This document shows, piece by piece, positions 3-13,371 of a stretch of 64,000 nt of DNA; within the stretch, counting starts at the first letter, position 1, and every line of letters begins with the position of its first letter. A model generated the notes under the pieces. That model saw only the letters and a program-made list of their open reading frames with translations, ran no database searches and was not told where the DNA came from. This stretch comes from an uncultured virus (IMG/VR IMGVR_UViG_3300021964_000046) (taxonomy: Duplodnaviria; Heunggongvirae; Uroviricota; Caudoviricetes): IMG/VR virus record IMGVR_UViG_3300021964_000046; one strand, given 5' to 3'. The translations under genes and the position numbers were made by a program.

Positions 3-698
3 CCAGCAGGCGGCGGCGAAACAGATGGTGGAGCAACAGCACAAGCAGGTGGTGGAGCAACAGCACAAGATGGAGCAACAGCACAAACAGGTGGTGGAGC
101 AACAGCACAAGATGGAGCAACAGCACAAACAGGTGGTGGAGCAACAGCACAAAGTGGCACAGATACTAAAGCAGGCGCAGATGGTGGTTCTAACGCGGAT
201 ACAGCGTCAACAAGCGGTGGTCAAGGTGGTGGTGCTACTGCTGGAGCAAAAGGCGAAAGACGTGCTACAAAAGACGAAATTGCTAAATGGGTTAAGAAAG
301 ATGCCGCACTTGTAGATAAGAATCCTGCACTTGATGGTGCTATCGAACCAGATAGAGATGGTAGAAATATTGGACTTGTTAGACAAGCAGACGGTGCAGA
401 TCATATTTGGGTAGGTCAGACATGGACAAATATGACAACTGGTAAAGCAGTAAGTGCTGACACACCGGGTTTAGGAAGACCAGATCTTGAAGAACTTGCT
501 AAAGAAATTCAAAAAGCAAACATTGCTAAACTTGTTAAAGATCAACTAACATCACCGGGTGTTCAAGCAAAAACTAAAGATGCTCAAATTACAAAACAAT
601 TAAAATCTAAAGCGGCAACAACTGCACCAGCACCGGGCGGTGCTAAAGCAGGAACAAGATTCCAAGACACTTCAAAACAAGGCGCTACCATTCAGTAA
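3..698 (+). CDS. 3' part of a hypothetical protein (start lies before the window) with a Gly/Ala/Thr low-complexity linker
   Basis: Frame 3 is open from base 3 to TAA 696-698 (PAGGGETDGGATAQAGGGATAQDG...RATKDEIAKWVKKD...MTTGKAVS...). The 432..698 track ORF is its C-terminus. Confidence 0.75.
   Translation, partial: PAGGGETDGGATAQAGGGATAQDGATAQTGGGATAQDGATAQTGGGATAQSGTDTKAGADGGSNADTASTSGGQGGGATAGAKGERRATKDEIAKWVKKDAALVDKNPALDGAIEPDRDGRNIGLVRQADGADHIWVGQTWTNMTTGKAVSADTPGLGRPDLEELAKEIQKANIAKLVKDQLTSPGVQAKTKDAQITKQLKSKAATTAPAPGGAKAGTRFQDTSKQGATIQ
30..152 (+). repeat. Coding tandem repeat: six copies of GGAGCAACAGCACAA (GATAQ) in a 42-bp higher-order unit
   Basis: Copies start at 30, 54, 72, 96, 114 and 138 (spacing 24/18/24/18/24), all in frame. 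Confidence 0.95.
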
Positions 699-9814: not shown

Positions 9815-10978
9815 ATGTCAGAACTATTAGAAAGTAGATGGCAGGAAACTAAGAGCGCATTACTTGAAGGCCTACAAGGCACGAAGAAATCTGTGATGTC
9901 TGCTACTTTGGAGAATACTAAAAAGTATTTGGCAGAGACAGCAACAGCAGGTGCTACTTCAGCAGGTAACGTTGCAACTTTAAACAGAGTTATCCTACCG
10001 GTAATTAGAAGGGTTATGCCTACAGTTATCGCTAACGAGATCGTTGGCGTTCAACCTATGACAGGACCAGTGGGTCAAATCCACACATTAAGAGTACGTT
10101 ATGCAGACTCGTTCGATGACGTAACAGCAGGCGAAGAGGCACTTTCACCATTCCAAATTGGTGTTGGTTACTCAGGTGGCGGATCTACGGATAAAGCAGA
10201 TGCTACTGCAACCTTAGAAGGTACAGCAGGAAAGCGTATGTCAATCCAGATCTTAAAGCAAACAGTCGAAGCGAAGACACGTAAGTTAAGTGCTCGTTGG
10301 ACTTTTGAATCTGCACAAGACGCACAAGCACAACAAGGTATCGATGTTGAGGCAGAAATTATGGCGGCTTTAGCACAAGAAATTACTGCTGAAATCGACC
10401 AAGAAGTTCTTGCTTCTTTAAGAAACCTTGCTGGTACTGCTGAATCAGACGTACAGTATGATCAAAATGCTGTATCAGGTACTGCAACATTCGTCGGTGA
10501 CGAACACGCGGCACTTGCTGTTATGATTAACAGAGCGGCTAACAAAATTGCACAACGTACAAGACGTGGTGCTGGTAACTTTGCAGTGGTATCACCGCAT
10601 ACGTTAACAGTTCTTCAGTCTGCAACAACTTCAGCGTTCGCAAGAACAACTGAAGGTACGTTCGAAGCACCAACTAATACTAAATTAGTAGGTACTTTAA
10701 ATGGTGCAATGAAAGTATATGTTGATGCATATGCGGCTGACACAACAGACGTGCTTGTTGGTTACAAAGGAACATCAGAATCAGATGCGGCGGCATTCTA
10801 TTGCCCATACATTCCGCTAATGTCTTCAGGTGTTGTACTTGATCCAACTTCATTCGAACCAGTTGTGAGTTTCATGACAAGATATGGTTATGTAGAGTTA
10901 AACAACACTGCATCATCTCTTGGTAATGCGGCTGACTACTTGGCAAGAGTGTCTGTATCAAACGTATCTTTCGCATAA
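9815..10978 (+). CDS. gp23: Major capsid protein, T4 gp23 family
   Basis: ILPVIRRVMP..IA.EIVGVQPMTGPVGQI, VEAKTRKL.ARWT.E.AQD, EITAEIDQE, IAQRTRRGAGN, AAAFYCPYIPL, FMTRYG. Confidence 0.97.
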   Translation: MSELLESRWQETKSALLEGLQGTKKSVMSATLENTKKYLAETATAGATSAGNVATLNRVILPVIRRVMPTVIANEIVGVQPMTGPVGQIHTLRVRYADSFDDVTAGEEALSPFQIGVGYSGGGSTDKADATATLEGTAGKRMSIQILKQTVEAKTRKLSARWTFESAQDAQAQQGIDVEAEIMAALAQEITAEIDQEVLASLRNLAGTAESDVQYDQNAVSGTATFVGDEHAALAVMINRAANKIAQRTRRGAGNFAVVSPHTLTVLQSATTSAFARTTEGTFEAPTNTKLVGTLNGAMKVYVDAYAADTTDVLVGYKGTSESDAAAFYCPYIPLMSSGVVLDPTSFEPVVSFMTRYGYVELNNTASSLGNAADYLARVSVSNVSFA

Positions 10979-10995
10979 GATATTATACAAAAACG

Positions 10996-11024
10996 AAAAG
11001 GGCGGCTTTATGTCGCCCTTTTTT
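10996..11024 (+). terminator. Rho-independent terminator after gp23
   Basis: AAAAGGGCGGC-TTTAT-GTCGCCCTTTT followed by a T-run. Confidence 0.9.
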
Positions 11025-11063
11025 ATTGACTATTCAAAATATATATTTTGGTTAACCTAACCA

Positions 11064-11092
11064 TTGCTTTTTTCACAAAGATTTGTTATATT
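11064..11092 (+). promoter_or_regulatory. sigma70-type promoter with extended -10
   Basis: TTGCTT (11064-69), 17-nt spacer, TGT-TATATT (11084-92). Confidence 0.6.
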
Positions 11093-11099
11093 AGTATTA

Positions 11100-11346
11100 T
11101 AAGTTACAAAGGATTTAGCGGTCCGATGTATATAGTGCAAGGAAGAGGCGTTTACCAGAGCGTCGAACTTGGCTGTAAAGGGGTGGTACCCAGGCATGGT
11201 TGCAGAAATGCGTTGTGTCACATCGCTCTACCGAGCGGCTACAGGCTCCCTGGTTTCAGAATGGTATCTGCGGCGAGGGGTTGGAGGTATAACCGAGTCC
11301 TCCCTATTTTGCTTATATTTTAAAAAGACTCTTCGGAGTCTTTTTT
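11100..11346 (+). ncRNA. Putative free-standing structured RNA (~245 nt), family unknown
   Basis: About 56% GC over 11141-11300 in an AT-rich genome, many hairpins (GCA-GAAA-TGC, CGCTC-TACC-GAGCG, GGAGG/CCTCC, CAGA/TCTG), bracketed by its own promoter and terminator, no credible ORF. Confidence 0.7.
11322..11346 (+). terminator. Rho-independent terminator with C(UUCG)G tetraloop
   Basis: AAAAAGACTC-TTCG-GAGTCTTTTT followed by T. Confidence 0.92.
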
Positions 11347-11363
11347 CTTGACTAAATAATTGT

Positions 11364-11783
11364 ATGAAGGACGAATATACAACGGCCTTTTACGACATTG
11401 TCAAGGAGGCATCCGAGACTACAGGTTATCAATTACCTTTAGAAATTGAAGCCTATGTAGTAATGCTTCTTGCAGATAAAATAGATAAACCAAACTTCCT
11501 ACCAGAAACTTCATTTGCAGAATCACTTTTAGCATTAAAACAACCCTATAGATTAACTGCTAAAGAATTAGGAGATACTTGTTTGTTTGTAACAGGTGTA
11601 TTTCCAGAATATGGTATTAGTGTAGATTACTATTCAAGTATTGGAAAAAACAGTTACACACTAATACAACAAGGTATGCATATAGAATTGTTCAGTTCAC
11701 TTGCTACTCGCTTTGATTTTATACGTAAATTTATAAATCTAACTGTAAACCCTAAAAATTCGCCATTAAGTTTAATTAGATAA
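11364..11783 (+). CDS. Hypothetical protein
   Basis: 139 aa with KELGDTCLFVTGVF..ISVDYY motif; preceded by TAAATA (11353-58)-N5-ATG. Confidence 0.75.
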   Translation: MKDEYTTAFYDIVKEASETTGYQLPLEIEAYVVMLLADKIDKPNFLPETSFAESLLALKQPYRLTAKELGDTCLFVTGVFPEYGISVDYYSSIGKNSYTLIQQGMHIELFSSLATRFDFIRKFINLTVNPKNSPLSLIR

Positions 11784-11786
11784 ATA

Positions 11787-11885
11787 CTTGTGTCAGATAG
11801 TGTGCCGCATATGTGGCGGACTTATGCTGTTACCCACAGCGTACCGGATAGAACCCGGATAGGACTACTTTATAGGAGAAAACAA
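11787..11885 (+). promoter_or_regulatory. Structured 5' leader (four-way junction) after late promoter TAAATA 11781-86
   Basis: Stems 11804-08/11813-17, 11823-30/11836-43 and 11844-47/11855-58, closed by 11798-801/11864-67, then SD AGGAG and ATG 11886. Confidence 0.6.
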
Positions 11886-12335
11886 ATGGGAAGACCAATT
11901 AACAAAAGATATTTTGGACCGGCTACAGCAGGCGGTAACGAAATCAAAGTTGACCTTTACAACGGTTCAGCCGTAGTTGAAGGTTACATTGTAAAACAAT
12001 TAGGATCAAAGAAGTTTCGTGTAGCGGCGATCGGTACACCAGGAACTACATATGATCGTTTTTTAACAACAGGTAAATTAGCAACAGCACTAACAGGTAC
12101 TGAAATGGCAATTACTGTATTAGGTGATGATTCAGAAACATATCAAATTTCTAAAATCTCTGGTAGAAAAGCAACTATAATTGCACCAGACGGTACAGGA
12201 TCAAATGCTTTAACAGGTACATCAGTAGCATGGAACTTTACAGCATCTACAGGTGATGGTGCAGTACAAGTTGAAGAAGCAGGTGACGACGATATATTAG
12301 TTGGCACAGACGACGACGATTTCGCTAATGCATAA
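11886..12335 (+). CDS. Probable virion structural protein (MGRPINKRYFG...)
   Basis: SD-supported ATG at 11886 rather than GTG 11790; 149 aa, beta-rich, late promoter upstream. Confidence 0.75.
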   Translation: MGRPINKRYFGPATAGGNEIKVDLYNGSAVVEGYIVKQLGSKKFRVAAIGTPGTTYDRFLTTGKLATALTGTEMAITVLGDDSETYQISKISGRKATIIAPDGTGSNALTGTSVAWNFTASTGDGAVQVEEAGDDDILVGTDDDDFANA

Positions 12336-13357: not shown

Positions 13358-13371
13358 GGATAAATATTACG

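Follow-up and report, generated by a model that had tools for sequence, protein, structure and literature searches.

A structured RNA behind a phage capsid gene

The stretch of DNA analysed here (hereafter the window; 64,000 nucleotides [nt] of the uncultured virus IMG/VR IMGVR_UViG_3300021964_000046) represents the late structural module of a T4-like myovirus, with genes for the portal, a gp21-type prohead protease, scaffold, a gp23-type major capsid protein, baseplate wedge, tail fibres and tail sheath. Between the capsid gene and the next open reading frame (ORF), which begins at 11364, lies a gap of 385 nt, and this gap holds the element under study: an RNA that we assign to the manA family (Rfam RF01745), framed by a promoter and an intrinsic terminator. 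A preliminary description of the locus had proposed a free-standing structured non-coding RNA with signals of its own directly after gp23, had taken it for an undescribed phage RNA (for instance a decoy or anti-defence RNA, a ribozyme or an oligomerising RNA), and had pointed to two complementary loops as a possible kissing pair; every element that it listed was found in place when the sequence was read directly. The features of the unit are listed below, A2 denoting the alignment of relatives described in the next section.

11064..11092, plus strand: sigma70-type promoter, with a -35 box TTGCTT (11064-69), a 17-nt spacer and an extended -10 element TG-n-TATATT (11084-92; TG at 11084-85); predicted start at about 11099
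11099..11316, plus strand: manA-class RNA body, from the 5' strand (11099-11106) to the 3' strand (11309-11316) of closing helix P0, containing P1-P9
11111-14/11121-24, plus strand: P1 hairpin, a helix of the preliminary description
11147-53/11158-64, plus strand: helix P3b, likewise proposed there
11152..11158, plus strand: loop L3, UUACCAG, which carries UACCA (A2 and loop counts)
11173-77/11240-44, plus strand: helix P4, enclosing P5, P6 (with a GAAA loop) and P7
11183..11188, plus strand: loop L5, GUGGUA, on the invariant GGG/CCC stem P5 (Rfam consensus loop GUGGUG)
11205..11208, plus strand: GAAA (GNRA) tetraloop L6 on P6 (Rfam alignment and A2)
11229..11232, plus strand: loop L7, UACC, complementary to L5 (loop counts)
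11247-51/11276-80, plus strand: helix P8, its register ambiguous by one base, with inner stem CAGA/TCTG
11261..11266, plus strand: loop L8, AUGGUA, which carries UGGUA (A2 and loop counts)
GGAGG/CCTCC, plus strand: helix P9, also in the preliminary description
11322..11346, plus strand: intrinsic terminator of the RNA, composed of AAAAAGACTC, a TTCG loop, GAGTCTTTTT and a T run

Conservation of the fold

Relatives were collected from IMG/VR by two routes. Relatives of the capsid protein led to 80 loci, among which a copy of the RNA was detectable with blastn in 8 and with an nhmmer profile in 13; an exact 16-mer taken from the L5/P5 core led to at least 120 viral contigs. Alignment A2 comprises 82 distinct copies, and promoters and terminators were counted in 88 distinct extended copies. 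Because the L5/P5 stretch served as the search pattern, its invariance among the copies collected is a matter of construction.

The RNA stands out by composition, with a G+C content of 53.5% at 11116-11313 against 37.7% in the window and 27.5% in the flank 10979-11098, and by the stability of its single-sequence fold (z = -3.3; none of 200 shuffles folds as well). When RNAalifold was applied to the 82 copies, with no recourse to the Rfam model, it returned 44 pairs, of which 35 show compensatory changes, and the helices so obtained (P2, P3a/b, P4 enclosing P5-P7, P8 and P9) are those of the manA architecture; it thereby recovered independently the helices of the preliminary description, which were essentially right. 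A 56-pair structure, consisting of the RNAalifold helices together with closing helix P0 and the inner P8 stem, has 94.3% of its cells paired across the 82 copies, compared with 77.6% in column shuffles (0 of 500 reach the observed value), and pairing falls to 30-51% when partners are slid by 1-3 columns. Changes on both sides occur in 46 of the 56 pairs. Pairing is poorest in P0 (78.8%). All 82 copies have a hairpin of 4 or more base pairs in the P1 region, built from many different stems, and junction nucleotides are highly conserved in A2. Column variation is the same at all three codon positions (0.19-0.21), so that codon periodicity is absent. The fold is thus upheld by compensatory substitutions across 82 distinct phage copies, and the description of the element as a structured non-coding RNA is confirmed.

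Membership of the manA family

At Rfam gathering thresholds nothing was retrieved in 11064-11346, the sole match in the window being a freshwater-2 RNA further downstream. A permissive search of 451 nt (10950-11400) revealed a match to manA at 11116-11313, spanning the model from 1 to 192 of 192, with 44.8 bits and an E-value of 2e-10. Twenty loci, picked by hand and by eye for diversity among the at least 120 that carry the L5 core, were then compared with the same model; all 20 match it over its full length, with 45.0-75.4 bits, and 14 reach the gathering score. A copy identical to the window RNA (L157) also scores 44.8 bits. Because relatives that share the core match across this range, the window RNA is placed at the low-scoring end of a continuous series within the family, and its membership rests on homology through that series and not on the score of the window copy itself.

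The features that define manA point the same way. The helix order is that of the family (a P1 hairpin, P2 enclosing P3, P4 with P5-P7, then P8 and P9), and the conserved blocks are present: GUG..GAA at the P2/P3 junction, a GGUGGU-type L5, a GNRA L6, ACC in L7 and GGU...UCC in P9. The carriers of the family, T4-like phages of aquatic bacteria or marine bacteria, are matched by the T4-type portal, gp21, gp23, baseplate and sheath genes of the window. These likenesses hold against the manA motif as set out in the available text of its original description (RF01745; Weinberg et al. 2010, PMC2864571). The window RNA departs from RF01745 in several respects: it has an additional closing helix, P0, outside the Rfam model; in its branch L3 is fixed as UACCA and L8 as UGGUA; it lies in a late structural module directly after gp23; and, in place of the 5' untranslated region (UTR) in which that text sets the family (Rfam type 'Cis-reg'), it is flanked by its own promoter and by a terminator that separates it from the next gene. 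Position in a 5' UTR belongs to the annotation of the family by context, and is no feature of the RNA as such.

As judged from its sequence, the window RNA is a divergent member of manA and not a new class of RNA. The claim of an undescribed phage RNA is accordingly not supported, since manA matches over the whole model and close relatives exceed the gathering score; the preliminary description had itself named a match to a known Rfam family as the finding that would remove novelty, and in substance manA provides it. The family is already catalogued; the window contributes a divergent new member, found in a setting that is unusual but recurs among relatives. ARAGORN found no genes for transfer RNA (tRNA) or transfer-messenger RNA (tmRNA) in the window. 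The RNAs of the ROOL, GOLLD and raiA/OLE class are orphan, ornate non-coding RNAs, often phage-borne, sometimes near tRNAs and with reported RNA-only multimers, and they differ from the window RNA in being several hundred nt long and unrelated to it in sequence and fold; none of them matched the RNA stretch in the Rfam scans. In the literature on manA, searched outside subscription journals, we found no paper that assigns a function to the RNA or describes a free-standing manA gene.

A probable independent transcription unit

Promoter and terminator are both recurrent among the relatives, and the preliminary description was right in giving the RNA signals of its own directly after gp23. A sigma70-type promoter precedes the RNA in 78 of the 88 extended copies under a loose pattern and in 61 under the strict pattern TTGACN-16..18-TATA[TAG]T, compared with 35 (loose) and 3 (strict) of 4048 control windows from the same loci. 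Its placement is regular: in 68 of the 78 promoter-bearing copies the distance from the end of the -10 element to the L5 motif is 85-86 nt, and transcription is predicted to start on the first base of P0. Spacers vary between copies, while the boxes, an upstream A tract and the TG remain constant. A consensus scan had chosen another pair of boxes in the window, TTCACA/TATTAT at 11072-11100; the homologs show that it is the TTGCTT/TATATT boxes that are conserved. Within the window as a whole, promoter-like sites found by the consensus scan are no more numerous than in shuffles, and neither TTGACTAAATA (3 matches, 3.7 expected) nor the promoter pattern with two mismatches (6 against 4.4) is enriched.

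On the downstream side, a strict terminator-like hairpin follows the RNA in 64 of the 88 copies and starts about 10-25 nt behind P0 in 56 of them; in four more (L129, L138, L171 and L200) an imperfect hairpin followed by a T run was recognised by eye. The stems of these terminators are unrelated in sequence from copy to copy, and the 3' end of the RNA is conserved. An anti-terminator reading was rejected: the longest complement between the 5' arm of the terminator and the RNA body averages 5.71 in 56 copies, against 5.82 for shuffled arms. Because this complementarity is no greater than that of shuffled arms, no expression platform was seen, and the mutually exclusive pairing of aptamer and terminator that typifies riboswitches was not found.

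Some copies are placed differently. In L103 and L155 the manA RNA begins 6 nt after the ...CCA end of a tRNA and not after a promoter, and in L108, L141, L150 and L163 it follows a permuted tmRNA gene, again in place of a promoter. This arrangement suggests that the copies trailing tRNA or tmRNA are released by the enzymes of tRNA processing.

Complementary loops

Four loops of the window RNA fall into two complementary classes, with UACC(A) carried by L3 and L7 and UGGUA by L5 and L8 in its branch. Contiguous Watson-Crick complementarity of at least 5 pairs between L3 and L8 is present in 54 of the 82 copies and of at least 4 pairs in 72, the corresponding values for shuffled loops being about 7% and about 29%; between L5 and L7 at least 4 pairs occur in 44 copies (null about 14%) and at least 3 in 72. 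One variant pair (L116) is shifted to CCAG/CUGG. The loops TACCA (11153-57) and TGGTA (11262-66), singled out earlier as a possible kissing pair, are thus present, complementary and conserved.

These loop classes acquire a possible meaning from a 2026 cryo-electron microscopy (cryo-EM) preprint, which, in its available text, reports that manA RNAs assemble into octamers, decamers and an icosahedral-like cage of 60 subunits (bioRxiv 10.64898/2026.07.01.735769). The assemblies are described there as composed of pentamers that intermolecular kissing loops (L5-L7' together with L8-L9' or L3-L8') and a GNRA contact L6-P6' hold together; the constructs came from Photobacterium and from metagenomes, and the family is still called putatively cis-regulatory (10.64898/2026.07.01.735769). 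The window RNA belongs to the same family and has the loop classes for L5-L7' and L3-L8' as well as a GNRA L6, and it may assemble likewise. By this analogy the TACCA/TGGTA pair would correspond to the L3-L8 kissing contact of the preprint, and the earlier idea of a kissing or oligomerising RNA fits what the preprint outlines for the family.

Gene neighbourhood and distribution

The features on either side of the RNA unit are as follows.

9815..10978, plus strand: gp23-type major capsid protein gene (PF07068 Gp23, E 3.1e-98; phrog_138 major head protein, E 2.7e-103)
10996..11024, plus strand: intrinsic terminator of the capsid gene, composed of AAAAGGGCG, a 9-nt loop, CGCCCTTTTTT (CGCCC) and TTTTTT, read by eye
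11352..11358, plus strand: CTAAATA, a box resembling T4 late promoters, 5 nt before the ATG of orfA; putative promoter
11364..11783, plus strand: orfA, the downstream gene (139 amino acids [aa]), with no Pfam or PHROGs match; an inconstant neighbour of the RNA
11803..11888, plus strand: freshwater-2 RNA (RF02980), 75.5 bits against a gathering score of 49.9; leader of orfB (ATG at 11886) and a separate element, not part of the manA unit

The terminator of the capsid gene was missed by the hairpin scan because that scan permits loops of 3-8 nt only. Seventeen nt separate the terminator of the RNA from the start of orfA, and the late-type box lies between them; in L001, which among the 80 capsid-baited loci has the closest capsid relative (94% aa identity), the canonical GATAAATA stands at the same 5-nt spacing. 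Boxes of the form [TGC][AC]TAAATA number 21 in the window (for example at 13359, 29937, 45170, 45620 and 59937), 11 of them followed within 120 nt by an ORF of 100 aa or more, and many ORF starts are preceded by such a box at 5-48 nt. This distribution is consistent with T4-type late promoters that have very short leaders, so that the RNA would represent an early-type sigma70 unit embedded in a late gene cluster.

The genes around the RNA are not constant. Many of the loci are short; within that limit, a relative of orfA lies downstream of the RNA in 13 of 128 RNA-bearing loci and one of orfB, often as the immediate neighbour, in 47. Of the 80 motif-bearing loci taken with 1500-nt flanks, 59 have a relative of the capsid gene next to the RNA, upstream on the same strand in 57 and convergent in 2. 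Seen from the capsid gene, the RNA lies downstream in only 12 of the 56 capsid loci that have at least 450 nt of downstream sequence (sub-family nhmmer profile), and of the other 44, the 20 scanned with Rfam all lack manA at the gathering threshold. Because it is present in so few of these loci, the manA RNA is an optional cassette and not a fixed component of the capsid locus.

Other structured RNAs occur nearby. The freshwater-2 RNA sits between a T4-late-type box GATAAATA (11779-86) and the Shine-Dalgarno (SD) sequence TAGGAG with the orfB ATG at 11886, and from this position the GTG start listed at 11790 is probably wrong and the element is the 5' leader of orfB. A freshwater-2 RNA likewise follows the capsid gene in 12 of the 20 relatives scanned at gathering threshold, and also in several manA-bearing loci. 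Glutamine riboswitch aptamers (RF01739, 47-58 bits) occur a few hundred bases from manA or freshwater-2 RNAs in L082, L143, L092 and L004. The region downstream of the capsid gene is a hotspot of structured RNAs.

In L001 (4290-4530; see also L012:4301-4477), the capsid terminator and sigma70 promoter are the same as in the window, and a different non-coding sequence of about 240 nt stands behind them. In L001 this sequence gave no Rfam match at E <= 0.1, had no terminator and folded with z = -1.76; fragments resembling manA occur in it (GUGGCAGAAUAA, GGAGGUGGUUGG and a P9-like GGAGG...CCUCC), and it could be a reduced relative of manA or a swapped RNA cassette.

Contigs of the genome collection were interrogated as well. 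The 16-mer occurs at 66 loci there, where chance alone would give about 280 in 596 Gb of evenly composed sequence, and four of the 66 hold a full-length RNA by nhmmer with the A2 profile. All four are metagenome-bin contigs (L256, L265, L258 and L228), binned to Neomarinimicrobiota, Gammaproteobacteria and Verrucomicrobiales, and the two Neomarinimicrobiota contigs have the identical nhmmer score of 222.3 bits each. They are probably phage contigs caught by binning.

RNA libraries and a cultured carrier

Part of the stretch was found in 17 listed RNA runs from several studies, four of which (X1-X4) were examined. Contigs lie on the RNA in X2 (11107-11280, with no differences), in X4 (11126-11316) and in X1 (several within 11147-11316); X3 has no contig on the RNA and yields only pieces of the capsid gene and intergenic region of a relative, being the sole run of the four to cover 10989-11069, at low depth. 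Across X1-X4 the intervals 10962-10988, 11070-11096 and 11340-11366 are uncovered and the downstream gene is at low depth, features that, being those of contigs, we do not use as evidence. One X1 contig, from a close relative, stops at 11316 and continues with three unlike letters and then Illumina adapter, a weak hint that inserts, and perhaps the mature RNA, end behind P0 rather than at the terminator.

One cultured carrier of a manA copy was found as well, a phage grown on HTCC1062. Pelagibacter phage Mosig EXVC030M bears an unannotated manA RNA on the minus strand of MT647606.1 (108165-108348; L201:2978-3185) with 64 bits, above the cut-off. This copy is 73.9% identical to the window RNA over 182 nt and has a promoter of the type TTGACA-17-TATATT; it differs from the window RNA in having no terminator and in its setting, among genes of replication, with a putative rubrerythrin gene immediately downstream.

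Interpretation

On balance, positions 11099-11346 probably constitute a self-contained gene for a divergent, probably self-assembling manA RNA. Host RNA polymerase would start at about 11099, on the first base of the closing helix, and stop at the UUCG hairpin, so that the transcript would measure about 248 nt, or about 218 nt after trimming to the end of P0. This RNA would not be a leader of orfA, for which the late-type box may serve as a separate promoter. By homology with the manA of the cryo-EM preprint, it may self-assemble as a particle that displays two UACC(A) loops (L3 and L7), two UGGUA loops (L5 and L8) and the GNRA loop L6; intermolecular kissing contacts L5-L7' and L3-L8' would hold together pentamers, decamers and a 60-mer cage. 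As a working guess, it may act in trans, as a scaffold or sequestering particle made early in infection.

Several observations weigh against this interpretation. The window copy's 44.8 bits falls below the Rfam gathering score of 55.2, which is an operational cut-off and not a structural feature. All copies were found through the exact L5/P5 16-mer, and the sample therefore represents one sub-branch of the family. A strict terminator is absent from 24 of the 88 copies, and the scarcity of the RNA at capsid loci (12 of 56) tells against a fixed tie to the capsid gene. The complementarity of the loops is mostly conservation, not covariation, among related sequences, and where L8 reads GGCAU, in 12 copies, no more than 3-4 pairs remain. 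The loop numbering of the preprint was mapped onto the window helices by helix order and by taking L6 as the GNRA loop, an assignment that we infer, and the assembly work, as the available text of the preprint presents it, was done in vitro (10.64898/2026.07.01.735769). The RNA runs consist of contigs, and DNA may occur in RNA libraries, so that they speak for presence only, with ends, strand and level not readable from them. Lastly, the Mosig copy runs from its promoter, with no terminator, straight into the ribosome-binding site (RBS) of the rubrerythrin gene, a classic 5'-leader layout, and a cis role is therefore possible for the manA family.

The same promoter and terminator would serve equally well for a free-standing RNA that works as a monomer and binds a host or phage protein, whether as a decoy, a sponge, an anti-defence RNA or a partner of the translation or tRNA machinery, with its loop contacts made within the molecule. 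L3 and L8, and L5 and L7, could in principle pair in this manner, and in some contigs relatives of the RNA stand beside tRNA, tmRNA and glutamine-riboswitch elements. We nevertheless think this account unlikely, since the preprint, in its available text, shows L5-L7' and L3-L8' to be contacts between molecules of the manA assemblies (10.64898/2026.07.01.735769), and no constant neighbouring gene points to a protein partner.

The Rfam classification invites a further explanation, that of a cis-acting leader (a riboswitch or attenuator) in which a ligand or condition sets read-through of 11322-11346 into orfA and beyond. According to the available text of Weinberg et al. 2010 (PMC2864571), manA RNAs lie mostly in potential 5' UTRs and were rated probable riboswitches; the order promoter, manA, RBS and gene in Mosig, the mere 17 nt between terminator and orfA, and junction nucleotides as highly conserved as in aptamers would all suit such a role. 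It is countered by the architecture of the unit, in which P0 finishes before the terminator starts, pairing between the terminator arm and the RNA body does not exceed chance, and terminator stems are unrelated between copies while the 3' end of the RNA is conserved. Nor does the context favour it: the downstream gene varies, orfA has a late-type box of its own at a conserved 5-nt spacing, and some copies follow a tRNA or tmRNA gene. For the window RNA we hold a leader function to be distinctly improbable.

That the stretch encodes a small protein, from the 91-aa ORF at 11048-11323 or the 60-aa ORF at 11169-11351 on the plus strand, both of which are open in the window, is rejected as next to impossible, since a stop-free stretch of at least 70 codons is kept in only 11 of the 82 copies and every frame is broken in the other 71, variation is flat across codon positions, single-base indels separate the copies, and substitutions are compensatory across helices.

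Returning to the interpretation of a self-contained gene for a self-assembling RNA, its significance lies in the history of the family. manA has been an orphan riboswitch candidate since 2010 (PMC2864571), and the RNA-only cages reported in vitro in 2026 come, in the available text of the preprint, with no biological context (10.64898/2026.07.01.735769). New here is the recognition that one large branch of manA consists mostly of RNAs that form a transcription unit by themselves, between a conserved sigma70 promoter and a terminator of their own, with other copies trailing tRNA or tmRNA; that the four loops for intermolecular contacts are fixed as two complementary pairs; and that RNA of this branch is present in metatranscriptome libraries. 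Together these findings argue for reclassifying at least this branch from a cis-regulatory element to a small RNA (sRNA) gene. A broader proposal, which we put forward as speculative and rather doubtful in its entirety, is that in a large clade of aquatic T4-like, probably jumbo, phages manA is an abundant early structural RNA and not a regulator, that its loop code of UACCA (L3/L7) against UGGUA (L5/L8) builds closed cages in the infected cell, and that its adjacency to the capsid gene reflects a compartment, scaffold or sequestering role in virion production. The locus supplies constructs, loop mutants and, in Pelagibacter phage Mosig, one cultured phage-host pair with which the role of RNA cages can be approached in vivo. 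If the proposal were true, the manA cage would be the first natural RNA 'capsid' with a biological job.

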